64,000 bases of DNA from Catajapyx aquilonaris. Taxonomy: Eukaryota. The notes below the pieces were generated by a model that worked only from the letters and a program-made list of their open reading frames with translations, did no database searches and was not told the DNA's origin. The position numbers and the translations under genes are program-made. Of the stretch, positions 29,316 through 56,310 are shown piece by piece. Location: assembly GCA_000934665.2 (NCBI GenBank), contig JYFJ02001142.1:62001-126000 (forward strand), written 5' to 3'. The number at the start of each line of letters is the position of its first letter. The stretch's first letter is position 1.

Positions 29316-30685
29316 TTATTCATTCTCTTGGGATTTAAGGAACTTTTCATATGAACTCTCATCCATGAGGTCATTGAGCTCCTCAGGTTTGGTAAACTCC
29401 AACTTGAAGAGCCAGCCTAGAAGGATATGTGGATGAGAAGTTGGTACAGCAGTACAACCACTTTTTGGTATCAAGGCAAGATATAGTCAACTTGGCCGAC
29501 AGCCAATGAATCTTGAGTCTTACGAGTTTATCATTATGGAGGTGCAGAGGTCAACTCTCCCCTTCAGAAGCAACCCTTCAAAGGCATAACTTTGCTCTTT
29601 TTTCAAGCTGTGTAAATGTGGCATACCCACCCTTATCGTAACATGATTGATTAATCAGAGCAGGTGTGTCCTCGACATTGGTGTTCTTTTCCACAACCTT
29701 CCCAGAAACTGGGCAGTATAATTCACTGGCTGCTTTAACGCTCTCCAACGCCCCGCATTCATCTGAAATGAGATTAATTAGAGGGGTTCAAGGCCACATC
29801 CCAATATGTCCCATAATCAGTGGAATAATCTTCCATATTTACCCATTAGGCTAAATTCACTTCCAACGTCAGGCAGCTGAGCGTACACAACATCACCCAG
29901 GGCATCCTGTATGGCAAACCTGTGCTGTTAAAACTGCACATCATCGTGTGATTTAAAGTTTGTTAAACATACCTGTGCATAGCGAGATATGCCGACAGTC
30001 CCAGTCTTGCCATCAATCAGCACCCATTCGTGCTTTTCTGTGAACTTCTTGACTGCAATTGGGCAAAGAAAAATTGGCAATTTCACAATGCAATAATGCG
30101 ACAAAGACAGCAGGCCATGAATTCTGGAAAACTTTTACATGTCATCGTTGCACTTTTGCTCGACTGATTACATTGAATTTTAATACCAAAAAATAATATT
30201 CCCTCTTTCTATCGTGCTCATTTGACACAAATTCCAGACTTGAGATCATCCAGTCTTCAAGCACATTCAGGAACAACTGAAATGTTTAATGTGGCTCTTG
30301 CTACTAAGTTGAGGAACCACTTGTGATCCTCTTGAGGTGCACTTAACCCAAGTGGGAAAAAGGAAGCTCTGCCATTGAGTTTAGACCTTGGCTCCGCCAT
30401 GGCAGCAAGCGGTTAGGCACTAGCAGTGGAGTGTGCACTAGTGCAAGACCGATGCACTGCAGTGCCTCAGTGCCTAACCACCCGCACGCTCAAGAGGCAT
30501 TTCTTCTACTACGCTGCACTTGCAATACATGTGTAGATGCACCCTTTGGGCAGGAGGTGGTTGCAGTGTGACTTGCCTAGGTCCCTGAGGTGGTGTGTGG
30601 TTGAGATGAGCCTGGTGGTGGGTCGGGTCACAGCAGATGCAGGCCCCCTCAGCATCCCTCTAAGCACGAGCCTGGCACACGCCAT
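29316..30685 (-). CDS. GCSH: Glycine cleavage system H protein, mitochondrial (161 aa)
   Basis: Exons 30577-30685, 29973-30052, 29843-29906, 29631-29762, 29316-29416 (486 nt). Arg-rich transit peptide, [24 protein letters not shown], lipoyl-lysine motif [13 protein letters not shown]. Intron 1 has a GC donor. AATAAA on the minus strand at 28890-28895. Confidence 0.95.
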
Positions 30686-31495: not shown

Positions 31496-34205
31496 ATGGC
31501 GCAACCCAGACGTGCATCTTGTGGCCTCGACTTTTGCGCCGTGGCTGACTTGAGTGCTAGCTTGCAGGTGGCCAACAATGCCAGGTGAGGCCTCCTGAAC
31601 CCTTGGACAACAGCTTCATTGGAAAATCCAGGTTGACATACCAATTGCACGAAATCATAAAATTCTCCTTACAGCTATCACTTTGTGTGCCTGCCAATCA
31701 TCCACCCTCGGCTCAAGCGGGAGTTCCTACGTGAAAGACCCGACCGCCCTGGACCCCTCACTCGATCTGACCTGCTCCTGCAGAGCTCAGACTGGAACAA
31801 CCTGGTGGTGGGCAAGCTCTCTCCGTACATAGCCACAGATTCCCCATTGGAGAGTGTGCGCAAACAGTCCGAGCAAGCTCTGGTGCAGGAGCTGACCTAC
31901 GCTTCCCACCTGGGCCTCCCTGCAGTGACCTTCCCGCTAAGAGGTCCACAGAACACCAATTTGGCCAGGATAGTTCATGATAAGATATCTGCAGGGGCCA
32001 GCTACCAGGTTTGGGTGGAAGTGCCCATGGAGAGCAGAAGTACCACAGCTCTACATTTCAGATCTGACATCGATGAAGGGGCCAGTGGGGATGGGCCTGA
32101 CTCTGAGGATGAGACGTGGGAGTGGTTAGTCATTTTACCGTCATATACTCATATCTTGCCAATTACTAGTTCAACTCATACATACCCTGCTTATTTAGGT
32201 GGACCCAATTCCACTTGACGTGCAACAGTGAGCGGAAGTTGGGGCTCTGCCTGGAAGTCACTGCGGACATTCCTTCTGATAATGTGGTTGAGCGGTGGCT
32301 TGGTGAGCCAGTCAAGAGCCTGGTGCTGTCCACCTCCTTGTTCATGACCAACAAACGGGGCTTCCCAGTGATGAGTCGTCCTCACCAGGTCCTAATGCGC
32401 AGGTTTGCAGCCATAAACGTCCAGGTGGTCCTGAGAGGGGCCAACAGACACTCCCACATTCGCTACTACCAGCAGTATTTGGATCACATCTGGCAAGGAG
32501 TGGACGCCGCCCAAGGAGGGGACACCACTCTTGGCAATTTTGCTCGGGGATACGAGGACTACCTGCAGTGTCCCCTGCAGCCCCTCATGGACAACCTGGA
32601 GTCACAGACTTATGAAGTGTTTGAAAAGGATCCAGTCAAGTATACAGAGTACCAGAGGGCCATCTACCATGTGCTCATCGACAAAGTGAATTCTCAGGAC
32701 AAGGCTAATGCAACACTGTACGTAATGGTCAGGGAGGGGCTCAGATAATGCATCAGTTACACTTCTCCATATTTGTTTCAATCGAACATTGAATTCTGTT
32801 TAAAGGCAGTTGTGATTCAAACTTGATATTGCAGTTCAGTAATTAAGAACCATGACTTTTGTTTTCCAGGGTTGTGATGGTGGTGGGTGCTGGAAGAGGT
32901 CCCCTGATAAAAGCTGCCTTCAATGCAGCAGCTCAAGCTGATCGTCGCATCAAGGTGTACGCAGTGGAGAAGAACCCCAGTGCTGTCATAACGTAAGTCC
33001 TTGCAATATTGTCAGTGAGTAATCAAGCCCACATGCAAATGTGTAACAATAACTTAACAAGTTGAGGGCAATACGCAAGGAACAGCGCCGTCTTAAGACA
33101 CCAACTAATAAATTTACATTTCCTTAGCCTGCAGGCGCTCCAGGCTGAGATGTGGCCAGGGCTGGTGACAGTAGTGTCGTGTGATATGCGGGACTTTAAT
33201 CCCCCAGAGAAGGCAGATGTGATAGTGTCAGAGCTCTTGGGCTCCTTTGGAGACAACGAGCTCTCTCCAGAGTGCCTGGATGGAGCGCAGAAGTTTCTCA
33301 AGGAGGATGGAGTGATGATTCCTCAAAGCTACACTTCCTACTTGGTCCCTATCCAGTCCTCCAAGCTGTACAACGAAGTCAGGGGATGTCAGGAGAGGAA
33401 CAAGCACCCACTGACGCACTTTGAGACAGCCTATGTTGTCCACCTCCAGAACAGGACGGAGCTGGATGAGCCACAAGCACTCTTCAAGTTTCATCATCCC
33501 AATCATGGTGAGTTTTAAAAAATATCATGGGACATACAGGCAATGAATATAAGCACTTACGGGTTTATATGGGAATTGGATTGTGGGCAAAATTTTAAGA
33601 CAGCCGTAGTTCAATGGGAAACAGCTGCAGCACTGCACTTTTTGTTTTCCAGATGCTGTGGTGGACAACACTCGATATGAGATCCGAACCTTCTCACCAA
33701 AGCAAAAGAGCATCCTGCATGGATTTGCGGGATACTTTGACACAATGCTGTACAAGGATGTGATGCTCAGCATTCTCCCTAAGACCCATTCCCCTGGGAT
33801 GTTCAGCTGGTTCCCTATCTTCTTCCCAATCAAGGCAAGTCTATTTCTACATGATGTTCACTATGAGACTTAAAATGATGGTAATTGGCCTATTGCCACA
33901 AGATCTATGCATGTCTTATTAACGACTGTATTTGGTATGGTTGGATGAGTATCTTAGAAATTGCGAGGAGTGGGGGAGTTATTCTTTACATAATATGCAG
34001 CAGTTTTAGACACGAGATCCTGTACTCATCTGCATGTGTTTCCTTCCTGCAGGATCCAGTGGTGGTGAATGAAGGGGACAAGATTGAAGTTCACTTTTGG
34101 CGCCTGTGCAACAAGAAGAATGTTTGGTATGAATGGTGTGTAACCAAGCCACAAGCAGGTGTGGTGCACAACCCAAATGGACGCTCCTACACTATAGGAC
34201 TGTGA
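31496..34205 (+). CDS. PRMT5: Protein arginine N-methyltransferase 5 (631 aa)
   Basis: Exons 31496-31584, 31675-32124, 32199-32717, 32870-32992, 33128-33507, 33653-33834, 34053-34205 (1896 nt). TIM-barrel [36 protein letters not shown] motif VVGAGRGPL, double-E loop [23 protein letters not shown]-terminal GRSYTIGL. The last intron has a GC donor. Confidence 0.97.
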
Positions 34206-34823
34206 CTTTTTTTTCCTACAGTACAATGTTTTATGTCTGCAGCTGCCATGCCTCTCATCGAACTTTTTTTGTTATGTCAATAAGTGTTTGTCTTTTTTAC
34301 ATTTGAGAACTAACGGTGGAACATCTCCAAAGGCGCTTTTAAAATAATTATTATTACCCTCACTTTGCAGAGCATGTTAGAACTTTGAAAAAGTTTAGTA
34401 GAATCCGTGACAATGGGCCCTTCAAGACCAAATGATTAATCTGTGGAGTGAACTTCAAAAATTGTTACAGGCATACGCTTCGGAGAGGGGAGCACATTAA
34501 AATGTTTCAATGTTCATGGACTCTGTTTCCCTACGTGAAAACGTGATATTTCATTCCAATAGGTTTAACTTGGAAACTACTAGCCTACTTTACCCATTAC
34601 ACACAGTATTGCTGGTAGGTACTTAACCATCGATTACCCCAGTGGTTTTCAAGCTGGGTTACGCGGAAACAATTTTGGGGGTATGCGAAAGATAATGCGT
34701 AATGGCGTCCAGTCGCTACATTTGTGGGAAGCATAATATTCTGATTCAACGAGAAGGAACCAACTTCTGAGAAAAACCAAAAAACAGTCCTACTTATTCC
34801 CATCTTTCTTTTTGCTATTATTA

Positions 34824-34924
34824 CAGTTGAATCCGGATATAACAGACTTCAAGGGACAGAGGAAATCAGTCTGTTATAACCGAAAGTCTGTTACAGCTGA
34901 AGCTGTTATATCCGGATTCAACTG
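34824..34924. mobile_element. 101-bp MITE, Tc1/mariner (pogo/Tigger-like)
   Basis: Perfect 22-bp TIRs CAGTTGAATCCGGATATAACAG / CTGTTATATCCGGATTCAACTG, flanked by TA on both sides. Confidence 0.85.
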
Positions 34925-36179
34925 TATTATTTTAGGGATGATTTATTATATGCAGAGGCATTTTCTTGCCATTTTCATTCAGCGCACACATTGAAATTAA
35001 AGAAGCAACATGGTAGTGTTAACTTGAAAATGCCAAAAAGTGGAATTATGTCCTTTCCCTAATATCTGGTTCAATTCCTCCACTGCGCTTTGCAACGTTC
35101 TGAAGGATTTGAAAATAAACTCTGGCTGCCCAGGCTGATCTACGTGGCCTTAAACATTTTGAGTCTCAACGAATGAAACAGAGGGCTTCAAGACATCACC
35201 GGGAATACAGCATTTCATGTGCAAAACACGGAATTATCAAAAATTCCAGTTTTGGGAATGTTGAGTAGGCTGCAAGGTAGCAAATTTTCTTGCTCTCCAA
35301 CACTCCAAGAATTTCAAAGCGGCAGTGGAGACCCCAGTTGAAGTCAGCTTTCAAGTCAACATATTGGATCAAAAGAATCAACTGGCGCAATAGTTTATAA
35401 ACATTAATTTTCAGAGATGGACATGCCTATAATTTGCATAATTATGGACTTTGTGATTTCTTTACCCTTCCCAACATGTCAGAGCAGAATCAGGAAAAGA
35501 TCAGCAAAATTTCTTGTGTTGACGTCCATGATAACAAAGTGCCTCCATAGACTCTATGTTGGCGCCATTTGTGAAAGAAAGAAAGCACACCCCATCGTGC
35601 ACTAACTGATAAGACAGCGCCCACAATTAGTACAATTTTCTGGTAGCCCAACAGGTTGGGGGGGGGGGGGGGGNNNGGGGGGTGTACGTGACAAAAAAGT
35701 TTGGGAACCACTGGATTACCCCAACCAGCTGGGATGACTTTCCGGCATTTGCCAATAGATACTTGTAATGGAGGCAGGATATGCTCTATTAAATGAGACA
35801 GGTTAAAAAATTCAATGCGAGTCTTTCCTAGAATGCCATCGTAATGATTGTTCTACACATTGTCTTCGAGGTGAAGATAAAAAATTACAGGTTTTGATCT
35901 TAGATGGCGTAATCATTTATTATCCGCCTACAACACACTTACAGTATAAAGAAAATCCCTACCCAGGGAACATTATTTTCGTTGCTGCAAAAAGTGAGCA
36001 GTTAAATTTGCAATAAACGTAACAACACATTAAGCCATAAAAGGATGCTGTATGAATGGCACTCATGACAATGAAGTAAGTAAACAAAATAAGCCATTAT
36101 TTACAGCCCAAAACCTGCCTCGTGCCACACTGACACATTTGTTAAAAATTTGTATTTATCTCTCTCTCTCTCTCTCTCT

Positions 36180-37500
36180 TGAAACAAAAATAATCTGGTA
36201 ACTCATTAAATTTTGTGTTGACTGCTTTGTACCTCAAAACGGACGGATTCCCATAACTTGGGATTTTTTTCCCCCTTTCTTTCAAACGTTTGAACTTTGA
36301 AGCGTACTTGATTCCAATCTCAACTACAACTTTGGGTGACTTTGAGCGATTATCAACGATTCACACACAATTTCCTAGGAACATGAGAAACTAAATTATT
36401 CGTCCAGTGTGTGGCAGCACTCTTAAGAGGAGAGTCAAAATAAATGAGTGACTTGAACATTCCTGCTAAGCGACATGTTCCTGGCTGCAGCCCTGTTATC
36501 TCAACACAAATTAAGAAATCATCTCAATATGCTTTAGGAATGTTACACATAAGATATCCCGTGTTAATTTGTGTCCAAACAACTGGGCTCATTTGTGTGG
36601 GTGTCCTGACACTTACGAATTCAAACTGTAGAAATATTAAGTCACTCTTGTTAACTCCACCCTGATAATCCCCAAGGAATCCATCACTTTTGCTAATAAA
36701 TTGAGGCTCATATAAAAATATATCTAGAGAGCTTACAATAAACCAAGATGCCCTTTGGCACATTATGCTTCTTACATGTCAGGCTTCAATATTCCGCCTT
36801 TGTCATAAAGCATGGCAACAATTAGAGAGTGCAATTTATTAGAGAACACAACTGTGCAAATAATTCTATGCCCACTTGATCATAAGGCATCGTGACTACA
36901 AGATATCGAGAAGACAATAAATCGATGTGTTCTACCCGTAAGATTTGTCACTAACCTTTGAGACTTCCTTTTTTTCTTCATTGGCTCCTAATGGCTTTGC
37001 AATCATGCTTATTACTTCTCCAAGACTTGGAAGTGGCAATGCTATTTCAATAATAATCTTTGCTTGCTAACCTTTTCCAAGTAATTCTCAAATTATAATT
37101 ATCACTAAGTTAGCAACATCACAGACATCTAGGGCTGAAATAGCTGTTATTCCAACTAGTCTTGTAAGAGTCAATTGCACTGCTTTGCACTCTGCCAATG
37201 CAATACCATGCTTCAATAACACTGCAGTACTTCCCTTATTACAGTTTGGAAAGTTGGGAGGATAAACAATTTGTTTCTGCAGAGTACATGCTTCTTTGGA
37301 TTGAGAGCTTATTATTAGCACCTATAATACTCTTTGACTGAAGTAGCTGAACCACAAACTACAATTATTATCAACTACTCTGGTGAAACGTCTTTGTCAA
37401 CCAGTTATCTTTTTCATATGCAGCTAATTTGAGACTTGTTAGATGACATTTGCAGAAGAATAAAAATTCCAACAAACAACTTCAAAGAGACATACATCTA
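36180..37500 (-). pseudogene. Decayed coding-like tract; candidate endogenous viral element with weak resemblance to orthomyxovirus PB2
   Basis: Four abutting or overlapping minus-strand frames with few stops in AT-rich DNA: 37321-36935 (2 internal stops), 36987-36775 (1), 36763-36356 (1), 36360-36181 (0). Short PB2-like blocks occur in order, but none is individually significant. Confidence 0.3.
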
Positions 37501-38881
37501 TTTAAAAATATGGCAACACACTGATAACTGACTGACAAATACCAACTTCATATTTCAAACTAAAATTAGTTCCTCTCCAACTATACAGGGATCACACTTC
37601 GTCGTAAATTCCTTAAATCTGGTTCCAACTATTTTAAAGATTACTAATTATTTTTGACTAATCCTGTACTTAAAAAGTGACTTCCAAATATTTTGGTATA
37701 CTACTGGAAAAATTAGCCTTGTACCCCCGCAAGCAGCATCAAGCGGCCAGGCAAAGCTATTTTTTTCCAGTAGTGTACCATTCTACTGCTACTAAACAAA
37801 AAATAAAATACTTCAGCCAATATTCAAAATGTGGTTTGTACGCATTGCAGTCATCGACTGGAGTCAATCCTTTCCTGACACTGCTTTACCCTAGTAAATG
37901 TAAAAAACAGCCATGTTTTGGACGAGAAGAATTGCACATGTAGATAAAAACTCCCCATAAGCAGACAACACAACAGGGCCATTCACACAGGGAAGAACTA
38001 TTCAGGTTGGGCTCAGGCTGACCAGTATAGTCTATGTAGCATTTGGAAGCATACAAATAGTGAATCCCAAGCACATTGAGGCTCTACCAGAAAACAAGCG
38101 AACAATGTCATTAATTTTTTGCCCACAAACAGGAACAAAATGACTTGTATTCTGGTCAGCCTCCCACATTCACGTGGGCAGTCATAAAGGAAGTTCCCTA
38201 TTTACAGGAAGTTAGACTGTTACTAAATAGGAAGCATGGTCAGATAGTAAAAATTAAATCAAAATGGCAGTGGGAAAAAAAAATCCGAAACATATGGGGC
38301 CAGCAGCCTTGGCACTAATAATTGTTCAGCACAGCCACTGGTCTTGCAGCGAATGCACACATTTCAATACCCACCCATGACATTTCTTTCCTGTGCGAAT
38401 GGCCTTCATAAATGCATCCTTGCTCATTTTCATGTTGCTGGTGTTTGTAACGGAAGAGGAGGAGACCACATACTGGTTGCAGTGGCATTATTGCATTGTT
38501 TAAAAGCCCACTACGAGTTGCACACATTTGGATCAAATACTACCCAGATGTTCAATTGCATGACTGGCACAAGTGAGAGCAAATGTGGGGATCAAATCCA
38601 TAGCCAAATGCAGAATAATTTTTTGTCAATACGCTCTCTTTACCCAACTGATCCCTCTCATCGTATCTCCTGTGTTAACTTTCGTTATTGAGAATCTCTT
38701 TCCTAAATTACATGGGATTACTTGTTCCCTTTATCATGCCTGAGGCATGATTTTGCACATGACAATGCTTTTCTTCCTCATTCTAAAAGAATAATTTGAG
38801 CATTTAATATTGCTTCCACTACCCCTCCTTGCCCCTACAAACACACACCAACTCTCAAACGCAACCACGGAACAGCCCTGC

Positions 38882-40832
38882 TTACGTGTCCCTGGCCCAC
38901 ATGCCCATGTCTAGAGGGCTACCAGCAGCGGATGCAAGTTCTGGGGCGCCAGGTGAGAAATCAGTAGTGGCGACGCTTGAAGTTACAGTGGCAACAATGG
39001 AGTAGTCTTGCCCATCTTGAAGTACCTTAAGCACATCTTCAACTTCATCTCCATCCATGTTGGGCAAGCAGTCGAGGCGGTCGTCTTCTGCCAACAGGGA
39101 GTCAAACTGGTCCTTCTTGGGGTCGAGCGTGTCCAGTTCCTCACCCATTATTGAGTCCAGGTCGATGTCAAGCAACCCGCCAGTTTGAAGTAGGAAGTCA
39201 CTCAAACCTTCGTCGTCTTCTGGGATTGTCACCACTTCAGGTTCTTGAATGTGCTGCGCTTCAACAGCCCTCTCTATTTCTTGTATTTCCTTGACAATCA
39301 TCATCTTGCGAGAGGCCTCTTGGTCGACTGGTTCTGGCTCCTGCTCAGGTTCTGGATCAGCAGCCCGTTGCAAAAGCTCTTTACCAAAAAAAGCTTCTTG
39401 CAAATATGCTGGGAAGGTCTCAAGAAGCTTTACTCTGGGTTTTCGACGGCGCTTGGAGTCTTCCGATCGCTTCTGAGAGCGCGGTACGAACCCACCAATG
39501 CCAAAACGTGTGTACCGTGACTTCTTCTGAGGCATAACGTCTGGTGAATCAGGTGTTCCAGACACCACAGACTCTATGGCAGCCAGTATTCCGTCTTCTG
39601 GATTCTTTCGGTTCTTCCTCTTACGATGTTCGTCCAACCCCAATGACTTCATCTGTGCCATTCCAGTTTCAGATAAGCAAATGCCATCCACCAGGTACGA
39701 GGAAGGAGTTCGGCGCTTCAAGGTAGCCAAGTGTGGTGGCGGGACATCATTTGGACGGCATAATGGACAGTTGTACCCCACCTCACCGCATCGCTCGGCC
39801 TCCCACTCAGTGCGTATCTGGTCACAACTTCCATGCAGCCACCTGCGACACTGCATGCAACGTACTATGAGCTGACCTTCATTGTATGATGCATTGCACG
39901 AGGGACAAACTGACAGACTTGCACATGGACCGCAACGTGTGTACTCCTGCTGCCACCCACTGTTGAACCCAGGATCACGTGCACCACATGCGTCACACCC
40001 AGCGCACCTCCCACATTTCCAAGTGCCATCAGGCACATGATCAAGTGGTGGAGTGGCACAGTAGGTGTGGTAGGACACATCACATCCATCACACAACAAA
40101 AGCTGGGACTCGTCGTCCCGACTTCCACATCCCTCGCACACAGTGCACTCGATGCACCGCCAACCCTTAAGCAGCACAATGCGCGAGACCTTCACGCCAG
40201 CACAGTACGGATGGTAGCACTGCCCACATTGCACGCATGCAATAAGCCGTCCCTCCGAGTCACTCCCGACAGCACCACACAACACGCATGCATCCTGCTT
40301 AAGCACAAATGGCGAGGAGCACAGAGTCGTGTGGTACTCTGCCCTTGGCTCTACCGGTGTGACCACGGAGGCTGTCAGAGTCTGAGTTTCAGTCTTCCTC
40401 TTGGTGTTGAGTGTGGGCCGCCTTGACTTGACAGGCGCCGACCTGTTCCGCACCCTGCTCCTGCTCCGCTCCACCTGGTCGTGAACCTCGTCAGGCGAGT
40501 CGCAATCCAGGGACCTCCTCCTGGCAGGCTTCCTCTTGGGCGCCGTCCGCTTCTGGTCTTCCTCGTGGAACTCATACACGTCCTTCTTGATCATGCTTTG
40601 CGTGCTGCACCTGCAAAACATGCAAACATGTAAACCAAGCTCTGCAATGTCACAACCCCACATCGTTCCCTGCGGCGGGCGTCAAAATCCCCCCCCACTT
40701 TCTATCCCCCAGCTCGACCTACGGTTCGGCCCGTTCCCTTGGGACGCACCGTGGCTTGCAGGAGGCCATCACTTGGACGGAAGAGGCTGGAGAGACTCAC
40801 CTGCTGGGTGGCAAGCAACTGGAGGGAGTCAT
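38882..40832 (-). CDS. KMT2C/KMT2D (MLL3/4; trr/Lpt)-related triple-PHD-finger protein lacking HMG/FYR/SET (~586 aa)
   Basis: Short exon 40801-40832 (MTPSSCLPPS, donor AG|gtgagt, phase 2) joins in frame to a 1.73-kb exon 38882-40610; an alternative start lies at 40594. Three PHD fingers with all Cys/His ligands plus an intervening CxxC..CxxC match the second PHD cluster of KMT2C (QDxCxxCG..GRLxACxQCGQCYHPYC..KGWRCxEC). They are followed by GIGGF and LETFPAYLQEAFFGKELL, motifs I recall from KMT2C. Confidence 0.85.
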
Positions 40833-40837
40833 GTTTC

Positions 40838-40945
40838 TCAGGAAGCCATCTTGCACGCTGTGACGTCAATCAAACGATTGCAATGGCATCCGATGGTATC
40901 GCGCACACCAAGTAGTTCTCCTCCGGCACACCAGGCGGCACCACC
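40838..40945 (-). promoter_or_regulatory. Putative promoter of the PHD gene
   Basis: Perfect CRE palindrome TGACGTCA at 40861-40868; YY1-like CAAGATGGC overlapping an upstream ATG at 40849; CTCF-like CACCAGGCGGCACC at 40929-40942; locally CpG-rich. Confidence 0.5.
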
Positions 40946-43900
40946 TGCGCAAATGAGACGCGCGCGTTTTGTATTCCGCATGCAACAGCATCGCACAGTG
41001 CTGTCCAGTGTACAGTACATTAACATTATTGCTCATTACGAAGCTCATTACTCGACATCAGTACATTGTTCTACTGACAATGAGAACAATCCAATGCTAA
41101 ACCATCCATCCTTTCGAGACACAACAATAACTACATTACATTAATAGAAACATGAGCTTCTTCCAATATATTGTACGGTCCCCTCAATTGCATTTGTAAC
41201 AATGTAAATGAAATTACTTCAAGTCACAAATCCCATTTAAAATATAAACTAAACGACCAAATCGCTTACTGTGCATGATGCACTCGGATCAAGGTAGAAC
41301 GACACTTTCAGCATGGTATCAGCAGTTAGATTATGTTTGGAAACTGGCAAGCGTAACTAAATTGATGACATTTTCAGTCATGATTGGACTCCCTAGTAGG
41401 AATACTACTTACAGCACCTGTTCTGCATTGCTTTACACATAATTATGCATGCGATGTATTTACTTCAATCATTCAGCCAAAATCCCGAGACACAAAATTC
41501 AGCACCAAGTCTTTATTTGAGATGAACAAGTGACATAGTTGTTGTAATAAATGGGGGAATTGGTGGTGGGTGGGGGTGAGAGGGGGATTAAAAGTAGGTA
41601 AAGTTGGAAGTACCCTACTATCATTGGATAGCATACAAAGGAAGTACAGAGCCATCATGTGTTTGCCTTTCCTTTTTTATATAAAAAAAAAATTGGGAAG
41701 AGAAATACACCCAACACATGAAGGCAAAAAGGGCGACCCAAGTTCCATGATTCTGTTTAGTCCCTGAACATGGAAGAAAGTAAGAACTTAAGAGACAAAA
41801 AAAAAAAAATGACAAACACACACACATACATACATATTATAATATTTATGTCCCTCTAAAATTGGGAATTTCCACAGACCCGACTAGATGGCGACATGTT
41901 GCCCAGCTGAACAAGTCCATGCTCTCACCGAGTTAAAAACGATTGACCAAAGGTGACAAGAACCGGACAAACAAAACATGCACTTTTATCGCCCTTTTCA
42001 TGGTTATTACTTTATTTTTCAGTATGCAGCTATGGTCACGAGATCAGTGATTCTATACAAAGCATCACCGGAATTCTTTAGTCAAGATATACAACAATGT
42101 CATGAAGGGAAAAAATGTTGAATGTCATTCGCCAAATCCAGTACATGTTCTGCACGATGACGTGCATCTACTAAGTAAAGATGACTATTTCTTCCCTCCC
42201 TGCCTCCCCCCCCCCTTCCCCAAAATTGATATGAGGAAAAAACAGTTGGTGGAATTTTTTGGGGAGTATAGATGAGAATGAATCTGAAGAAATTCGATGC
42301 CAAAAAAAGAGCACGTCTCTGAACTCCTACAAGTGGTAACATTTCAAATGGAAGAAATCCTGATTGCACGGAAAACCTTCAACAAATGTCCCCAAAATTG
42401 TCCTCTGGCAAGTCACCAGTACCACACAATCCTCCTTGAAAGAGGAGGATGCACTTGGGAGACAGGGGGAAGTGAGGGGGAGAAAGGAAAAAAAAGAGAA
42501 AAAAACCATTCACAGTCTTGATGTTGTGAAATAACACTTTTTCAAGCAATCGCTTTGACTTGGCCACAGGAATAAAGAAAAAAAAACACTTGTTGCCACT
42601 CTCCCCCCACATGTAAATGTCTTATTTTGTGCAGGGCAGGTATGGGGAGAGGTTGACTTGACCTGTGTTGGGTGGTAGATTGATTGACTGACCAACAGCA
42701 GCAGCAGCAGAAGGAATATTGTTAACATCGCACATAACACTTGTCAGGATGCGTACACAATTTTAACTGAAATTACAAAACAATCACAAGTCCTCGTAGG
42801 AAAGAAGGTAACTGGTTAACCATGTTTAAGTAACCATCCTGAATAATATATAGAAATAACACCATATTCAATAACATAGCCACTGGGAATGATAACAGCA
42901 TGGGATGGGTGAGGGAGGCTCACTTGTAAGGGTGGGATTTACTATGCAACACAAAATGTCAAGCGCTTTCAGGAATTCAGTTTTGTGTTTCCGTTTCTCA
43001 TCTAACTCGCATGTTCTCGTGAGCAAGTATTATTTGAAAAATAGAGCCGTTGTAAAAAAGTCCGGCTGTAATTCTACAATGAGCAAAGTGATTTTCTTAT
43101 TCTCTCATAGTGCAAAGTAACTCTTGCATGTTCCTAGGGAATGATGGTCAGGGATATCTACACCACGTTTCCAAAAGTGCAAAGGAAAAGGAAAACAACT
43201 AGTACAGGTGTGTGTGTACGCACGTGTGCGAGTGGTGGGGTAAGGCATTATTATTATTCCCTGCCAGTTCTTTACCACCTTTGCACCTAGTCTAAATGAA
43301 TTGGGTCACGCTCAAGTTCCCTTCACACTACGCAACTAAATTTCTTAGAAAATAACCTCATTTTGCTCTGGCCAATTCAATGGTTTCTAATAAATCATTT
43401 CAAACAATTAATCTGCAAACTAGTGTGTAGGTCACACACACAAAGCGTAACTTCGATTCCCAAAAGGTAGTCAAGTGTCGGCTGGAAAATCCTTCGTTTA
43501 CTTGGAAGTTGTCTCCTGGTTTTAAACTCGTTAGGCAAGTTCTGTAATAGTCGCATGCCTGCACTGGCTGTATTGTGCTCTGGAGAAATGGATTTGCACA
43601 AGCCTTGCATTAATTTTATTTCACTCGGCCCTTCAAATATGGGTGAAACTAAGCAGACTAATGCAGCACAATAGAGAGAGCCATGCTCTCCAATCCCTGA
43701 AGACAAAGGGTAAGGTGCACAAGTGGAAACTGAATTCCTGAGCCTCATATCTCTCCTTCTTTTCTTTGAACTTGTTGCCTGGAAATTCTCTCACAGCTAC
43801 TAAATACTATCTATTAATCAAATGCCACTGTGAACTATCTTCTGACTTCAAAAAGGAACATTTTAGTAGAAACTCACAATGGACATTTAAATTGCAAAAG

Positions 43901-45556
43901 GTCACCAACTCCCTCGCCATTCCAAAAAACAACCAGCCTACAAGTCACAATTAAAAAATAACTGACCAATAAGTACTGCCAAGTTTACTGGACCAACATA
44001 CGAACACTACTGTAGTTTTAAAAGGACGTAAAAGAGACACAATCCTTTCTTCGATTTCAGCTTTCCTCACCCTCCTTTTCCTCTGTGTTCTGTCTCCGTG
44101 TCTGTGCGCTAGCAACTACGACTTCCAAGACTCTTGCAGGAGGTCTGCTAGCCCGCTTTAGTTCTCCAAATGGTTCTCCTCTAGACGGCAATGTTATCAG
44201 TCTTGGCAGGGTCTTTAGTGATTCTGAGTGACTTGGCGCTAAGAATGTTCCTCAGAGCACCAGCTCCCAATTAATTGCCTTCAAAAAAAAAACTCACCCT
44301 GCTGCTGCATTTTTAAGTCACAAGAAAAGATAAAAGCAGTAATAACAACAACAACAACAACAATAATTATAATAAAATAATACAAGTACCCCCTAATATT
44401 CTTTCCACATGTTATCAATCACATTCTGTCTTTTCCACTTCACAAAATTTTGCTCTGCTCCCACAAAATAATGTCACCCAAAAACTAAACAAAAACCTAT
44501 TATCTGTACAAAAGAACAACAAAGAATGAGACCCAGAAGAGGAGGAGCAAAAGGAAACTAAGCTGAACGTAATACTTTTCAAACCCGCTTTTCTCCCTGG
44601 CAGAGAAATCTGACGCTGAATGGAAAATACCCCAACTTTCTTCCACAGTTTATGAAATGTACTGCAACTTAGGCCACTTTTGTTTCATTTTTTTTTTCTT
44701 TAACTTATCTGATATCAATAAAAAAAGTTAATTTCACAGTGGAACTGTTTCAGGCCGTACCTTGGCCTCTATAATTTCTACATTCTCTACTCCTACAAAC
44801 TGTATCTATGCAGTCCTGTTTCAACATTTGTGGAGAAAAACATGAACAAGTCAACACTGATTACCAGCAGTGTTGTCCCTACACAAGAAGGGAGGGGGAG
44901 GGAGGGAAGGGGGAATCTCTGAACAAGTAGATCACGACCAATCCATGGTCTCTGCACCAGAAACATTTTTCAAAGTGGTTATGTAATATAGAAAAGACAC
45001 TTGTAGTATTCAAATACACCAAACTACACAAAGACTTTCGCCAAGATCCCTGCCTCGACTGCAAGACACATGACTCACTGGCACCTTTGAGGAAGGAAAA
45101 GGGGAGAGAGGAGTTTTCCTTGCAAGGGGTGGAAAAAAAAGCAGAAAATGAGATTATTTCAGCACAACAAAGAGTCAACTTTTTGTTAACGATGCTCATG
45201 TTACAGAGGGAGAAAAAAAAAGTAGGCCAATATGAAAAAACAAGGCAAATTCACATCCTCCACCTCCTCCTCCTTTCCTTGGGGGAATGGCGCACATAAT
45301 GTTGAGTGCTGTACAGGAAGCCTGTACATCTCTCTCTCCCCCATCCCTTGCCCACCACATACAGTACCTCAAAAGTGCATTGCTTGCAACCACTGCACTG
45401 GCTACAGTCAAGTCTCATGGGGTGAGTGTAACATGAAGTGAAATTGTGGGGTCTCTAGGTTTGGAGAGTAGAAGGTATTTAGAGAGAGAGAGAGACAGTG
45501 TATACATGTAGAGAAAAAGTGGGAAAGGATGTTTCGCCGCTGGACAAACAGGAGGC

Positions 45557-48500
45557 TTACTGATTGGCCTGTGGGTCACACTGTAACAGTCTAACGATGG
45601 AAGGGTCGCTTTTGGCACCTTCAATGAACTCTTCTAGGGACAACTTTCCATCCATGTTCTTATCCATCTGCCGGAAGATCTTGTCTGTCCGCTTCTCAGG
45701 TGTTGACTCATCCTCTGGCATTTTCATCACTGAACCTACCATTTTATAGATTGCCTGCAAGAGAGAACCAGCACGTCAATTCACCAAACACCAATTGCGC
45801 CTGAGTCACAAAAGAACCCATTCAAATTGTTTCACCACGAAACAGGCAAAAAAATGTTCCCATTAGGAATGGACAGTTGCCACTTCTCATGTGCAGAAGC
45901 TACAGAATTTAGCCTGGTTTCAGTATCAATTTCACAGACTCTTGCATTAATCACCTCACATTTAGGCACAAAGTTATGCTTACTGTTGAATTTTACAAAT
46001 GCCATTGCAATGGGTGCAAATGTCAGAAGCAACTCCTTTTCACTTTTAGAACACTAAAATATCTTTGGTGCTCACGTATAAGTTTCGTTGCTCCTCCTCA
46101 CCAGAACCATATGAACTAACATTTTTCTGAGAAATTCCTCTCTCAAAGAGCACAGATATTAAGAAGTGAAAAGCAAGGATCCTAGACTTCATCTGGTTTC
46201 TTATACTTATCCCATTAGAGATAATCTCATTCTCAATGTTCACCAAATATCAACATAACCAGATGTCACACTACAACATACACTATTTCCTTTCCTTCTT
46301 TCAAAGTTTTCATAATCAACTACTAGCTAAGCAAGTCTCGCACAATAACACTGGTCTACCATTTCCTGCCTGCCTTGAAAAGGATAGTGACTTGTTTTGA
46401 AAACAAACATGCAAAAAGTAATGCTGCTTATACAAGTAGAGAAAGCCTATCAAGATGTGGATTGCAAAATGTTGCCCTTTACTAACACACGTCAGCAAAA
46501 ATTTCACATACGACTTTTGCTTATGCCTTGTAGATATGCACTTAAATTTTGCCTCCAAATCCCATATACCCATGACATAATATATGTCAAAACATCACGA
46601 GAAAAAAATTAGCAGCCATATGTCCCCATTTTTCAATGGGTCACAACAATGAAACAGGCCTACCAAGTAAACTGACAACTTGGGTCACTGGACAAAACGT
46701 GCATCAGATGCATTATAACTGTGGTATTTCAAGTAAGATCAGCAGCCAGTTATCGGGCCGCCAGAGTTGTTCCAGGTGTGTAGCAAACTAATCGAAAAAT
46801 TCATGCTACTGGAGTTTAACTAGCAAATGATAATATGTTATAACCCCTTCACTACCAGCCACCTAGAAGCTAGGTGACGAGAACTCGACCACCAGGTATC
46901 ATCAGTCCAAAAAGAATTGTCCCAGTCATCCTGATGTGTGTGCTGCCCGCTCGACACACACCATGTAACTTACATGGTGTGTGTCGAGCGGATGACTGGG
47001 ACAGTTCTTTTTGAACTGTTGATACCAGCTATACAGCAATCGCCTAGATTCTCTTCACTTCCATTCCACTTGCAAATAAGGACAAGATATTTTACAAATA
47101 ATAACAGCTATACTCTTACATTCATGCTCTACACAATGCATGTGTTGTAAACAATTTTACTCGCATAGAAGTCCGTAAATTAATTTCCAAAAAGATTGCC
47201 GCACAGTATACCCACTATATTTCTGCCTAGATTTTCCCTCCTGTTCAACTTACAAGTACGCTGAAGTAAGGGCAAGATATTTTACAAGTAGTAACAGCTG
47301 TACTTATCCATCCATGCAAAACACAACATATGTATTGGAAACAATTTTCCTTGTCTCAAAGGCTGTAAATTAATTTCCAAAAGAAGATGAAAATCCTAGT
47401 ACTACCATCCAACTGTTACAGTGATTTAATTATGAAATACGCTAAAATATACAGAATAACAATCTTGAGAACCATGCCAGATAACTTTGTTGAAATCGTT
47501 GCACTTTCCGAGAAATAAATTAATACTTTTCTGCGACTTGCCAATCACTTCGGATAACTCCCAAATTTATTTATTTCTCGAAAAGTACGACGAATTCATC
47601 AAATTCATCTGGCACGCTTCCAGGATTGTTATTCCGTATATCTTAAAAGTATTTCAAAATTAAATCAACCTAACAGTTGGCCGGGAGTACTCGAATTTCC
47701 AATTTTTTACAGAGATCTTTTTGGTAATTAATTTAGGGACTTCTATGGGAGGAAAATTGTTTCCAATACATTCAGTGTGTTTTCCATGAAAGGATAAGCA
47801 GAGCTGTTATTATTTGTAACATATCTTATTCATATCTTCAGCGTATGCTTAAGCGGAAAACTAGGTGGTGACGGGTATAACTGGGACTGTGCGGTTGAGT
47901 TCTCATCGCCTAGATTCTAAGGTGGCTGGTAGTGACGGGGCTAATAAGGCTATTGGCCAAAGGAAGTCTTCAGATCCTTTGCTCCTCACTAACAGTAAGT
48001 GTTCAAAAAAGGTATGAGAAGTACAGCATCACAAAGACTCCAAATGAGCCAAGGTTTTGTTTTAAAGGACCACAAACCTTCCACAATATTACTTTCACTT
48101 GGAACAGAAATGACCATCTCACCGTAACAATTTCCAGCATTTCTTGCCTGGAGATGTATCCATTACCATCCAGATCATACATGCTGAATGCCCACTTCAG
48201 CTTCTGCTCCAACTTCCCTCGAGACGTCACAGAAAGTGCACACAAGAATTCCCTGAAGTCAATGGTTCCATCACCATTGGCATCAAACGTCCTAAAGACA
48301 TGCTCTGCAAACTAATTCACAAGAAAGGTAAGTGTCTCTGGTCTGACAAACTTGGAGCAAACTGATGCTGCAATACCTTGGAGGCATCCCCATATGGAAA
48401 AAAATTCCCATATATTTTCTTGAACTCTTCTACACTGAGATGGCCACTGGGACAGTCCTTCAGGAATCCTTTGTACCATTCTTGGATTTCAGCATCTGTA

Positions 48501-48642
48501 TACAATTAAAATTACACAATTACATACATTCCAAGTGAAACAGCCAGATACTTTCCCAATCTCACAACCAACCTGAAAACTCTGTGTTCTGCCGGAGATC
48601 CTCCAGCACTTCAGGCTTTAATTTACTGTTTTGTTTACCCAT
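45557..48642 (-). CDS. Nca: Neurocalcin/hippocalcin-like neuronal calcium sensor (191 aa)
   Basis: Exons 48573-48642, 48377-48495, 48123-48311, 45557-45754 (576 nt). Myristoylation motif MGKQNSKL; inactive EF1 (DCPSG); EF loops [36 protein letters not shown]. Confidence 0.95.
46844..47940. mobile_element. ~1.1-kb non-autonomous foldback DNA element (piggyBac-like termini) in neurocalcin intron 3
   Basis: ~50-bp imperfect TIRs CCCCTTCACTACCAGCCACC... / ...GGTGGCTGGTAGTGACGGGG; flanks ATAA and CTAA, each one mismatch from TTAA; long internal inverted arms centred near 47545; internal tandem duplication ~47030-47200 vs ~47210-47380. Confidence 0.8.
46895..47026. repeat. Nested hairpin/MITE with a perfect 22-bp palindrome core
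   Basis: CCGCTCGACACACACCATGTAA (46947-46968), one base, then its exact reverse complement (46970-46991); flanked by ~35-bp imperfect outer arms. Confidence 0.85.
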
Positions 48643-51600
48643 TGTTCGGAAGAATTATATATGTACTTGGAATGACACGCTATCTCATGCAAACCCTGAA
48701 ATTGCAAGAAATCAGGTATTAGAAATGCTCATAATATAATTAAAAATATAGTTTACACTGACACGTCAGCATGCAATATTTTGCCATGTTGGAGGAAGCA
48801 GTTCTGACTTTGGGCATGCAGAATTACATACTGCATGACTCACCTTAACCTGAGAGCCAAAATATCTGTCCAAATATGCATACACCAATAGTCTTCTGGC
48901 AAAGATTACCTCATAAGCTGTTCCTACCATTCCTCTTGTTACCCGAGAACCTGACTGGTAAAATAATTAGCAGCCAAAATAAATTAAATGTTCTCGTGCT
49001 TGATGGTTATCTGCTCACAATATTTTTGCAAGCTTCACAATGGAACACACAGATAAAAGGCTGCAAAGTGTTCACCTCTCTAATACTACAACTTCCTGTC
49101 AGATTCTCACTTAAAGGCACAAGAATGAAGAATCAAATCCCAAGTGTACCATATTGATCATCGATTTTCTCATGCTGTCTATAACCAGTAACATGGCACC
49201 AATAAATTCTACCCCTTTACCTTAAAAGACAAAATGCTGCAAAAGAAGAAAAAAAATAGGGAGAATGCAGGTAAAATGACATATTCTCACAGTTTTGGTT
49301 TGGAAATATGTGTATTGAGAAGGAAGAGTGCAAGACGTACAAAAATATTAACTAGAGAGGGCATTTGAGAGGTGTGCCAGGAGGAATGTGTGCTCGCTAA
49401 ACCAACAGTCAGAGTGAACAAAACGGCGACTAGAGCAGAGCTCAGGAGGATTGTCGTGGAAACTGGCAAGCGAGTCAACAGTAGAGTCAAGATGCAAGCG
49501 CAAGTGTCCTACCACCAAACATACAGTACAAGTGCCGCAAAATCATCCTGCCAATAATTGTCTGCTTCTCTGCACACACACCGCTGGCATGTTGTTTCCT
49601 ATTACTTCCTTCCACAATCTACTAGCAAACACTCTGGGACCTAGCTTAGTGAGATTTGTCACATGTTCCCTGAAAGCAAGCACAGGGTCAAAGCACATAG
49701 AATGTCAACTACATTGCAAATAAATTTCTTGCACATATTTCCAGCATACTTGGAGCAGTGGCAGGAATGTACCCTACACTCCTCAACAGGAGTTCAAGTA
49801 ACTTAATGCAACTCGAGTAGATACAAAAACGAAAAATATGGCTGGGCCGTTGTTCATGGCTGGAAGTTGTCTGCTATGTAAATGCCTACTCTCGGTCACT
49901 GGCTTGAATTCTTGCTTGCTTGCTTTTTTATCCTAAACTTTGGAATATTTCCCCTGCTTCAAAAATATACTGAACATCGTAAAACACCAAAACAAATTTA
50001 AAAACGCAAAATATTCACCAGTCGTCCTCCTAGTACAGGCTTCGCGGTTCCCTCTCACTTTCTCTCTCTTGACTACCTTTGATCTCATAAAAATCCCATG
50101 ACCTGTTGACAATACTGTTTCTTTTTTCTTTCTTCTTTGTGAAGAGCTGAGCAAAAATTGTCACTGTAAATGTCTTATACTCTCTTGCCAGGAAACAAGC
50201 GTCCTTCTCTTCTCGGGACTGCAGCAAAAAAAGTTATTTTGGGTCCCCAACTGCACAAAGTGACAGATAAAAAGTTGTGTACCTTGTACAGCCATCCGTT
50301 TTCACTTGGTGAAAGTTAACAAGTACGTAGTCACACACCAACAGGTGGGAAATAACGACAAACGATGAAAAGCCCACCTTTGTACACTCCTAACTTGGGC
50401 AACTGCAGTTCAATCTTGCAAGGCAACAAGAATAACCACCAACTGCTTGTAATACAAAACGGAACAAGAAATGTATGACACCCAACTAGGACCTATACAC
50501 AATTTTATGCACATTATATAAAATTCACACTGGAATGTTTGATGACTACAACCATTACTTTGCCCCCCGGTCAAAAAAAGACTTCATCCAACCGTGCAGC
50601 CCTTCCCACCCCCCATGGAAAAGAAAATGCAATAGTATACATGGTCCAAAATAATCCTGATATGTCACTGGATGTGTCTGGTGTGCAAAACCTCCTATCC
50701 TGTTCTATATCCTTTGAAATAGCTCAGTGCTTGTATGATGATGATTTCAGATCCCTTCTATCTCGTGAGATCCATGTGCTATCAGGCACATAAAGTTTGG
50801 GCGCTTGGGTTAAATTCTCAACTGCCTCATTTTTGGCCCATAGAGTGTCCTGAGGAAAAAAGCAGACATGACCCATTCAGTCTCAGACATCAAGAGAAAA
50901 GGAGCAAAAATTGCCCGCTCTTGCCCAACATCCACAGGCCAACAGTGACGTATTTGAGAATGGAGAAGTGTCTGAACCTTTATGGGCCCAATAGCAAACA
51001 GTAATATCAAAGTACCTGAAATATTATACGGGGTAAAATAAGCAACAGGAGTTTCGAATGAATCAAAGGTAATACTGTCAAGGTACATTCATGCGTATGT
51101 CTTGGTCCCTTCTGCACACCATAATTTTTGACATGTGAAATGTGAAGTGTGTATATGTGAACCTATGGGTAACCACAGCTTAACAAATGGATTGAGAAGA
51201 TAAAGCAGTGAGTACGTGGTGCAGGACTGCAAACCTTAACGCAGCTCTCTCTCCTTACATCCTGATTGTCATCTTTTCTATCCAGTCAATGAGGAAAAGT
51301 AAGGAACAAAAACGCAACACCCTGGCCAATGATCATTGCCCAATCCCGACAGCAGGTGTTCTCTCAGTGCCTTCTTTGGGCATTAGACAACCACTTGAAT
51401 ACTTTGTGGAAGGTCAAAAAGGAGAAGGTATTGGCACGCATGCCCATTGGGAACTTTCAACTCTCCCTTCACTTATACACTTTGTGCTAGAGATAGTCCC
51501 TCTATAAGCTCGGAAAGTAGTGGAGTTATTGTCAGAAGAAAGTTGACGACTTCCAAGAACCTCATTGGTAACACACAATTATCAAAATGCAGATGTCTCG

Positions 51601-51987
51601 ACTTGGAATGTAACGTATCTATTTGAGAAAGAGTAAATTTTGCAGGTGCTGTTGTAAGGCTATTGATATGCACAGGTAGAAAAACTAGAGGCTCAGGTTC
51701 GCCATTACTTGAGAGCACTACAGGAAAGTAATGCAGTATTACACTTTGGAAGAATTTCTCATGTAAGCAAATGAATCATCAACAAGATCACAATCATCAT
51801 CTTCATGTCCATGAGATACCTTCCCAATAATTGTGCCAATATTATCTTGGAGGTGAAAAAGTGGAGAGAGTTGGATACAGGAGCGGGCAGTGGGAAGTAA
51901 GAATTCAATGAGCATATAGGGCCAGCTTAAACATTATCATCCCCTCTCGTTTTCTCTCCCTTTTCCCCTTCCCTGAAGTTTTAGTTC

Positions 51988-54102
51988 CTATGGTCCAGGA
52001 GCAAGCATCTTGGAAAGCTCGTCATCTTGGAGGCAGCCTTTCAAAAATTCCTCTTGCGTAAGTTGGCCATCATTGTTTTCATCCATCTTCGCAAATATGC
52101 TCTTGGCCCTTTCCTCCGAAGAATCTTGCGGCCTATTCGCCGAGTTGGTACCCAACATGTCATAAATGGCCTGCAGGCAAACACGATCTTTAAGCCTCCC
52201 AATACATGGAATTCCCTTCTTTTTAGCCAGAGTCAGACCCACCTGAACAATCTTGGTCATCTCCTGCAGGTCTATCACCCCGTTTCCATCAACATCATAC
52301 ATTCGGAATGCCCACTTTAGTTTCTCTTCAGGGGTGCCTGACGAGGTTACATCAATGGCCAACAAAAATTCCTAATGGAACGTAATGAGAGTTAAGTCAC
52401 GCTGTTGCATCAGGCTAGAACTAGTTCCTTGTCACATGAGCTAAAGTTACAGCCAATGACTGGGACTGAATGTATCGATTATTATTTACATGAACTTGTT
52501 TAACTCGTCCAAGTCTGAAAATAGCCCTGGCATTGTCTTTCATCAAATATTTAAAAAGCAGCAGTACCTGTATGGTTACGCAATTGTGAAACTAACCTTG
52601 AAGTCAATATATCCGTTCTTGTCCATATCAAATGTTCTAAACACATGGTCACAAAACTCCTCGGCATTTCCGCTGGGGAAGAACATTTTATACATATCTA
52701 CAAACTTGGCAGGGGTCAGTCTCCCATTGGGACAATCTTGCTGAAAGAGGCGGGGAGGAAGACCTCATTAGGCATTTACAGGTGCAAGTGAGTCGAGGAG
52801 AGAAGAGGCCCTGAACTGGCTGGTGCCTAACGCTTTACTGCCACAGAAAATGTCCAGGTCGTCCTGGGCTACTCCAACCCTATTGATCCCCCCTCATTCA
52901 AAGCTCCCCTGCCACCTCTTCAGCTTCTCCTTTCCTCGAGCTCTGCAAACACACGAACAGAACTGAGCGAACTACTGCCAGATCAAGTTGCTTGCCAATC
53001 ACATGCTTTCCTCGACCACCCCAGCGGATTAAGCTCACTTCAACGCACATCACTCATTTCTGTCCTCCGCCTCTTCGACAGAATATATCCCACTTAAACC
53101 TCCCCATTCAGACACAAGCTGTGGTTTAATACTGCCACCCGACATATATTTCCTAATCGTTTTCTTACGTTCAGTTAGTCTAACTCCCAGTTACGAAATG
53201 ATTTGCCCAAGTGGATTCGTACAGGTAGACCAGAAATGCACAATGATCAGTGTAACATTTTACAGTTTTAATATTTCAGTTTCTTATTTGAACCCATCAT
53301 ATCACCAAATCATTCCAATGTGACTTTCACACTTACGCATTTCTGGTCTTCCCACGCAATTGCAATGAAAACATTTCTTTGAATGCGCGTTTTAACACCT
53401 TTCAAGTGACTGCTGACATATCGTTCCTGCCATCTCACAGCCCTTGCTACTAAAGTAATGCAGTTAACTTGACTCAAATCTGCAAGCAGCTGCGACATTT
53501 CCCGGGCTAATTGCTAATGTCATCCGACTTTCGTCCGGACGTCTGAAAAATGGTGTCAGCAAATGAGCGCGAAAGTCTAGCCCTCTGTCATCTACTCATC
53601 TCGGCTTCATCACACTAATATTCTCCTTGAGGTTGATGCCTGTGACACACTGCATTCATCAAGAAGAGCGATAAGCTGGAGGGGGAAACTGCAAAGTGCC
53701 AGCTGTGCAATGGCGAGGGTTTGAAGACGGAAGGAAGGAAGGAAGGAAGGAAAGGTGGTGCGGGGGCCGGCGGCGAGATCATCTGAAGTCTGTGGAAACA
53801 GTGAGCGCCGGAAGAGGCGGCAGTGATTAGGGGAGGGGTAGAGCAAGGAAAGGATAATCCTGAGTGGGAAATGCGGCATGCAAATGCTAGCCTGCCACCG
53901 GGGGCTAATCAGGCATTCTTGTGAGCCGGTGGGGCGGCGCGGACTGCAAATCGATCAACTTTTGTGCGCATAATTGGAGCCGTAAACCAACCTTGAATCC
54001 CTTGTACCATTCTTTGATAGTTGCTTCGTCGTAACGAGTGTGATTTTTCAGAAAATCCAGGTCCTCTTTGGACAGTTTCTCTTTGCTGGTGAAGCATCCC
54101 AT
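51988..54102 (-). CDS. Neuronal calcium sensor 2-like protein (NCS family, 188 aa)
   Basis: Exons 53992-54102, 52597-52740, 52243-52371, 51988-52170 (567 nt, all introns phase 0). MGCFTS N-terminus; DCPNG in EF1; EF loops [36 protein letters not shown]. Confidence 0.93.
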
Positions 54103-56093: not shown

Positions 56094-56310
56094 CTTTCAA
56101 AAGCAAAGGTAAATTAGGAAGTGCTCATAAGGGAAGCCGGTCGGTCGAAGGTCAGAAAGAGCAGTAGCACAGTGTGGGTATCCAGTCCCGGGAACTTGTG
56201 TGTCCTGCGAGCCTTCCGCAGCTCAGCTCGACGAGTCCACTTGCAACGGGGAACTGTGCCTGCCTGCCTTCCCTGCTAGTCCCTGCCTCCTCCAGCCTGC
56301 CTGCCTATAG
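56094..56310 (-). promoter_or_regulatory. Candidate promoter and non-coding first exon for the NCS gene pair
   Basis: Donor AAAG|gtaaaa at 56093; GC-rich stretch upstream with a weak TATA-like CTATAG near 56305-56310 and a G-tract region. The first coding exons of both NCS genes are preceded by acceptors, so an upstream exon is needed. Confidence 0.4.

Follow-up and report, generated by a model that had tools for sequence, protein, structure and literature searches.

The stretch analysed here, hereafter the window, comprises 64,000 nucleotides (nt) of Catajapyx aquilonaris (assembly GCA_000934665.2, contig JYFJ02001142.1, positions 62,001 to 126,000 of the forward strand), and coordinates are counted from its first letter. 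On its minus strand, between 40832 and 38882, lies what is probably a stand-alone, expressed gene that encodes only the reader part of a KMT2C/D protein. It would be a separate, compact transcribed gene, probably of two exons, with a product of ~570-593 amino acids (aa) depending on the start. It would correspond to one segment of the ancestral KMT2C/D gene (MLR; trr/Lpt), starting with the linker ahead of the second PHD cluster, PHDb, and extending through the whole conserved post-PHD region. The predicted protein would thus run from a disordered basic N-terminus through PHDb, a small structured element and the GIGGF and FPAYLQEAFFG/helix motifs to an acidic tail whose C-terminus is conserved. 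Fly (Lpt/trr) and planarian (LPT/trr) already offer examples of split or partial MLR genes, to which the window gene adds a further variant.

The open frame extends on the minus strand from 40681 to 38882 and contains 599 codons, closed by a TAA at 38884-38882. By our own arithmetic a stop-free run over 599 random codons has a chance of ~(61/64)^599, or ~3e-13. The main coding exon (38882..40610, minus strand) measures 1729 nt including the TAA and is backed by the open frame from 40681, Pfam, tblastn and an RNA contig. Reading of the sequence further gives a putative first coding exon of 32 nt (40801..40832, minus strand), which begins with the ATG at 40832-40830, encodes MTPSSCLPPS plus 2 nt and ends in the donor CAG|GTGAGT. 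It is followed by a putative intron of 190 nt (40611..40800, minus strand) of the form GT...ttttgcAG, whose acceptor ttttgcag|G opens exon 2 at 40610, and the two exons are in frame. None of the contigs from X5, the transcript-containing run described below, supplies an RNA joint in support of the first exon. The short first exon put forward in an earlier note on this DNA is hence present in the sequence, in frame and bounded by GT-AG, as a putative exon. Alternative starts are offered by in-frame ATGs within the long frame (MWGC..., MIKKD...).

Pfam matched PHD in three stretches of the window protein (E 2.9e-19). The PHDb cassette (39734..40315, minus strand; aa 123-316) consists of PHD finger 1, PHD finger 2, a zinc spacer and PHD finger 3, as delimited by alignment to solved structures and by AlphaFold2. 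Residues 123-316 align without a gap over 194 residues with PHD4-6 of human KMT2D (9yle_K, E 3e-74), a cassette that the window protein thus shares with KMT2C and KMT2D (MLL3 and MLL4), and residues 228-311 match the MLL3 ePHD6 structure 6mlc (E 1.7e-22). Downstream lies GIGGF (39491..39505, minus strand; aa 393-397), within RFGIGGF at aa 391-397, where homologs have a conserved LGIGGF. FPAYLQEAFFG (39383..39415, minus strand; aa 423-433) is predicted to be helical and is conserved in homologs; an acidic tail follows this region, and then the TAA. PHDb and the post-PHDb motifs LGIGGF and FPxYLQEAFFG are features of KMT2C/D membership, and the two motifs are common to the window protein, the arthropod-like rows of our alignments and a hagfish sequence. 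Open reading frame (ORF) reading, Pfam and structure alignments therefore bear out the long exon with three PHD fingers, both motifs, acidic tail and stop that the earlier note had described.

An AlphaFold2 model was built on a 36-row alignment, and its predicted local distance difference test scores (pLDDT) were taken as means of 10-residue blocks. The PHDb region scored 76-95 across most of residues 131-320, with a dip to 57-67 at 231-250. A small hairpin-helix element at 329-346 reached 75-77, the helices of the FPAYLQEAFFG region (425-441) 81-82 and another helix, at residues 454-476, as much as 89. Both ends of the protein, namely residues 1-123 and the C-terminal tail, remained below 50.

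The other parts of a KMT2C/D protein were searched for throughout the 64 kilobases (kb) of the window. Tblastn with 15 long homologs, one of which carries FYR and SET, returned 36 matches to the window, all within 40354-38900, and these correspond to the second PHD cluster onward (for instance residues 717-1300 of a 1483-aa springtail protein). A relaxed search of the window with the flanking segments of the homologs yielded only PHDa-to-PHDb cross-matches and low-complexity noise. A profile of 83 homologs that spans the conserved motif plus the HMG box was run on all six frames of the window and gave no credible match (best E 6). Pfam was applied to 350 of the 359 stop-to-stop ORFs of at least 65 aa and recognised families in only nine (GCV_H, PRMT5, EF-hand); the nine ORFs left out overlap the PHD gene, the main one of which was scanned separately. 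Within the window, SET/post-SET and FYRN/FYRC were matched neither by tblastn with the 15 homologs nor by Pfam on the 350 ORFs, queries from the first PHD cluster (PHDa) only cross-matched PHDb in tblastn, and the HMG box was not detected by tblastn, relaxed search or profile. Since there is no SET in the window, the window gene is without a methyltransferase domain. Full-length KMT2C/D relatives measure ~4,500-5,900 aa, compared with ~590 aa for the window protein, which lacks PHDa, HMG, FYRN/FYRC and SET in the window. A weak tblastn match in the putative 3' untranslated region, at 37767-37687 (E 0.23), to the motif '...DEALG..ATIS.VLYAN' looked like a decayed downstream exon; it found no support in the 83-sequence profile and was rejected as noise.

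As a positive control 43 relative loci from metagenome contigs were collected, of which the 19 longer ones gave matches. Here tblastn recovered PHDa exons ~4-6 kb upstream of PHDb in six of the 19 loci and exons of the HMG region in the springtail-like locus L005, where they lie downstream of the big exon at a distance of 1.6-2 kb, so the method detects such parts when they are present. The claim that HMG, FYR, SET and a first PHD cluster are missing hence holds within the 64 kb.

Expression was assessed with X5, a run of unrecorded kind whose sample and study are not those of the DNA runs. It contains complementary DNA (cDNA), because its PRMT5 contig skips a 74-nt GT-AG intron. Record 12 covers 38969-39379, in the coding tail, with 0 differences, and runs unspliced through AAG|GTACTT at ~39033, an apparent intron site in some other arthropods. 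Downstream of the stop lie record 11 (37831-38259) and record 10 (35909-37283), the latter ending 7 nt past a minus-strand AATAAA at 35921-35916. Overall the RNA contigs match the tail of the coding sequence (CDS) and its flanks with 0-3 differences. Records 10 and 11, together with the AATAAA, delimit a probable 3' untranslated region (UTR) of ~3 kb at 35909..38881 (minus strand), and no open frame was found in the 3 kb past the stop, where stops occur throughout all three minus-strand frames. The contigs fit a separate transcription unit that ends near 35909. X5 depth is 0 at 39463-40113, no contig falls on 38812-38968 (by arithmetic from bin means) and bins 40114-41415 have small values; such blanks were taken as evidence neither way, and contig depths were not used for ranking. 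A transcription unit of its own, as the earlier note proposed, is supported by the contigs on the CDS tail and downstream of it, by the AATAAA end and by the unrelated genes on both flanks. A minus-strand ATTAAA also occurs at 38808-38803, ~75 nt beyond the stop of the PHD gene.

Several observations, here and in the comparisons below, count against a self-contained reader gene. The TAA lies within a good donor consensus, AC|GTAAGC (38882..38886, minus strand, by sequence reading), which had escaped the earlier note. The relative P0274 has ...WARDT as its last residues too, and a conserved donor would explain this no less than a conserved stop; collembolan-like relatives have an exon end near that of the window exon. 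Other arthropod homologs carry on toward the HMG box within ~70 aa. Neither the stop nor the proposed first intron is spanned by an X5 contig, so that the join of CDS and UTR is inferred, and the contigs are strandless, the AATAAA at the contig end being the sole hint of strand. The searches covered 64 kb, which leaves room for exons beyond. Taken together these points would suit a frame that forms a single large exon within a longer gene of the KMT2C/D or Lpt-like type, with the other exons of that gene outside the window, beyond the neighbours or joined in an unusual way. We regard such a gene as unlikely, if worth serious attention. Read by eye, an acceptor at 38835 would add only 4 codons before a stop and another at 38783 only 15, and the 3 kb downstream has no open frame and carries RNA contigs, one of them ending just past the AATAAA. 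HMG, FYR, SET and PHDa are absent from 39 kb downstream and 23 kb upstream, whereas in relatives they are found within 2-6 kb. For the protein to be longer, splicing would have to skip PRMT5 and reach exons outside the window, and both the same-strand EF-hand gene upstream and the convergent PRMT5 gene downstream would have to nest in introns of the longer gene. The stop was not equated with the collembolan-like exon end after ...SPSPHPG, which is in phase 1 against phase 2 here (our own reading) and sits in an uncertain low-complexity alignment.

A fragment of a true KMT2C/D locus could also have been misjoined between unrelated genes during assembly. A high-copy repeat and an NNN gap at 34800-35680, where DNA contigs break, would allow for this. 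The repeat proper (34800-35560), adjoined by the gap at 35674-35676, parts PRMT5 from the PHD gene; the X1 DNA contigs break there, which also weakens the picture of the locus given above, since the adjacency of PRMT5 and the PHD gene rests on the scaffold. One X1 (Logan) DNA contig nevertheless runs in a single piece over 35680-46921 with 6 differences, although X1 may be the assembly's own data, and covers the PHD gene, the putative UTR and the 3' part of the neighbouring gene, which places the PHD transcription unit in unbroken sequence. With the RNA contigs of a second sample and study also matching the CDS tail and flanks, we consider an artefact very improbable.

The best relatives of the window protein are arthropod proteins of the KMT2C/Lpt type, with 40-57% identity overall and up to 68% in the PHD module. 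The protein collection contained no identical or near-identical protein of 329-2995 aa. In the representative library a single close relative was found, P0274, of 323 aa and derived from a 1340-nt contig. It has 59% identity to residues 344-599 of the window protein and the same C-terminus ...WARDT, and does not cover the PHD module. The alignment shows 16 gap blocks, each of which is in frame by necessity and falls in the window protein; neutral drift would produce frame shifts in two of every three indels, so that by our own arithmetic 16 in-frame blocks have a chance of ~(1/3)^16. Among the better-conserved parts is the C-terminal stretch that follows VLK. A constraint on the reading frame is supported by these in-frame blocks, and the fact that a diverged relative has its C-terminus shortened in the same way speaks for a gene that is old and has been maintained. 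Every nearly invariant Cys/His column of the PHDb region is kept except for C145R, a position that is His in human KMT2D and Arg in the hagfish row; C145 would thus not be a zinc ligand. Accordingly the earlier note's statement that every zinc ligand is retained holds for the nearly invariant Cys/His columns, with C145R as a departure at a presumed non-ligand, and its shortened linkers are seen in the disordered parts, where the 16 gap blocks lie, and not in the PHD module, which is gapless against human KMT2D.

The PHD module itself has changed fast, which again speaks against a maintained reader. Of 125 nearly invariant columns, 20 (16%) are off consensus, K224G and W225R in finger 2 among them, compared with 0-8% in 32 other arthropod-like rows and 29% in the hagfish row, and the module is the most divergent arthropod-like row of the panel. 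In a 28-row tree its branch is 0.56 against a median of 0.24, with 1.76 for fly Lpt, and it is placed among pterygote insects and away from the rows of springtails, crustaceans, chelicerates and non-arthropods. Together with the PRMT5 identities given below, this placement marks the organism as a hexapod-like arthropod that lacks close relatives among the database sequences. The H4-contact position D1098 of MLL3 is Q in the window protein, so one acidic contact is lost. These consensus departures and the long branch could reflect relaxed constraint. The basic linker before PHDb (GLGKGKP...GRKRGPK.KMRG...) is unrecognisable in the window protein, and neither this protein nor P0274 has the conserved stretch of ~60 aa that precedes GIGGF. 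Purifying selection, as the earlier note suggested, is thus supported by the in-frame blocks and the kept Cys/His columns and qualified by the 20 departures of the PHD module.

Fast change in a very conserved module, the loss of both stretches and the lack of introns discussed below would be expected of a transcribed partial duplicate or retrocopy that drifts without a function of its own while a full-length KMT2C/D elsewhere does the work. To such a copy we assign a low probability. Its 599-codon frame is intact and is preserved by all 16 indel blocks against P0274, with good conservation in the stretch that follows VLK; the near-invariant Cys/His columns and four H4-contact residues are kept, and the diverged relative has the same truncated C-terminus. 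The two stretches read for a poly(A) tract, after the stop and after 35909, contained none, which is weak evidence as old retrocopies lose their tracts.

The comparison of intron positions that the earlier note had called for was made against other arthropods only. Three positions were inferred there, between fingers 1 and 2 (L005), at RDTG/LPNMD (L005) and after ...IFK (P0012, P0014), and the window gene has an intron at none of them; several single-ORF homologs also run through. The gene may have originated by fission of the ancestral gene, as a segmental partial DNA duplicate or as a retroposed short isoform. A break at the DNA level, within an intron, would agree with the place where homology stops, close to the end of an ancestral exon. 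The springtail-like locus L005 (1038-5320) shows the usual layout, with finger 1 of PHDb in an exon of its own, then a big exon, one of 55 aa (GLPNMD...SPSPHPG), two more small ones and, within 2 kb, an exon of the HMG region.

Returning to the stand-alone gene, its product would act as a histone-tail reader, as judged from its sequence. According to PMC10570056, PHDb is an ancient unit of three fingers which recognises the H4 and H3 tails, and acetylation at H4K5/8/12 works against it. In MLL3/4 and in fly Cmi, PHDb contacts the H4 tail around K16-R19 and binds H3 too. The contacts of MLL3 ePHD6 with H4(14-19) include Y1094, E1097, D1098, I1100, L1101, W1109, E1120, V1123 and A1127 according to the available sections of PMC6318328, which also give PHD4-6 of MLL3/4, fused to the C-terminus, as needed for nucleosomal methylation in vitro. 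Alignment to the solved structures shows that Y1094, I1100, W1109 and E1120 are kept in the window protein. L1101 is replaced by V, V1123 by A and A1127 by G; E1097 is G, as in the arthropod-like rows. An extract of PMC7608747 (citing Chauhan 2012) reports the HMG box as required for the pull-down of Trr by Lpt. As the window protein is without an HMG box, we infer a free reader or competitor, or a protein that docks via its conserved C-terminal motifs. By this analogy a free reader, which would occupy or compete for MLR target nucleosomes or dock through those motifs, seems more likely than a stable subunit of the catalytic complex. A part in assisting or competing with the COMPASS-like complex, which the earlier note suggested, would be conjectural.

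Drosophila Lpt/Cmi (cara mitad), the N-terminal half of a split KMT2C/D, is the closest parallel in that it is likewise a separate gene with PHD readers, without SET and with a homologous PHDb, which in Cmi binds the H4 and H3 tails (PMC10570056, in part). Lpt/Cmi differs in having both PHD clusters and the HMG box and in forming complexes with Trr, as given in parts of PMC10570056 and PMC7608747, whereas the window gene has PHDb only. Outside flies, Smed-LPT together with trr-1 and trr-2 of planarians presents KMT2C/D as partial orthologs in separate genes (excerpt of PMC6128892). There the complementary trr genes are known, while the window gene is known from the 64-kb locus alone. Fingers 1-2 of the window protein also match the double PHD of DPF2/DPF3 and KAT6A (E 1e-18 to 1e-14); these belong to different families, without the zinc spacer, the third finger and the KMT2C/D downstream motifs, and they illustrate histone-tail reading by a PHD-only module. 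In primates the juxtacentromeric BAGE/KMT2C duplicates of human derive from a partial KMT2C copy, of a different part of the gene, that became separately transcribed units. We know of no retained PHDb reader function among them.

In the open-access literature searched we found no description of a PHDb-only gene derived from KMT2C/D, or of a retrogene of it. Tentatively, and with more doubt than confidence, one may consider that a hexapod-like lineage split KMT2C/D such that PHDb and the downstream motifs stand alone as a small protein, without PHDa and HMG, acting in trans or as a free competitor and kept in at least two diverged species. If true, this would be a natural separation-of-function allele that shows the reader off the enzyme, through targeting in trans or competition for the H4 tail, and it would show how far the break-up of MLR genes extends beyond Lpt/trr of flies and LPT/trr of planarians. 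If a full-length gene is also present in the genome, the window gene would be an ordinary partial duplicate under some constraint.

On its 5' side the PHD gene is bounded by the neuronal-calcium-sensor-like EF-hand gene on the same strand, whose last exon and ~4-kb 3' UTR occupy 41553..45753 (Pfam, X5 record 13). Pfam matched EF-hand on the minus strand at 45560-45775, 48006-48311 and 51991-52371, and by our own reading the last exon has its acceptor at 45753, its stop at 45560-45558 and an AATAAA at ~41516-41511. Record 13 is contiguous over 41553-45753, its last 565 letters not being placed there. Some ~600-700 bp separate the end of this gene from the proposed first exon of the PHD gene. 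The 3' UTR of ~4 kb, under one RNA contig, is unusually long by our own reading. The protein of the last exon of the EF-hand gene (41553-52371) is presumably of the neurocalcin/hippocalcin type, which it resembles.

Downstream, PRMT5 (31661..34495, plus strand) is the convergent neighbour named in the earlier note, and both its strand and its identity were confirmed. Pfam found PRMT5_TIM, PRMT5 and PRMT5_C in five ORFs at 31661-34202, and X5 record 9, the spliced PRMT5 cDNA that lacks the 74-nt intron, ends at 34495. For a PRMT5 exon of the window, identity is at most 63% with named insect proteins and 54-58% with most of those from crustaceans. A GCV_H exon (glycine-cleavage H-protein; Pfam) lies at 29581-29787 on the minus strand, ~2 kb before the first PRMT5 coding ORF, which looks like a divergent pair. 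The wasp protein P0467 (785 aa) has PRMT5 and GCV_H domains together, probably as a fused annotation; a conserved GCV_H/PRMT5 neighbourhood in insects is hinted at.

High-copy repeats are present at 34800-35560 and 46900-47750, where DNA contigs reach depths of thousands and show numerous joints and loose ends. At 19251-20087 (both strands, Ser/Pro-rich) and 56168-56758 (plus strand, Pro-rich) there are long open frames, 197-269 aa in length and without a Pfam family, which have noise-level matches only, to proline-rich parts of KMT2C homologs.

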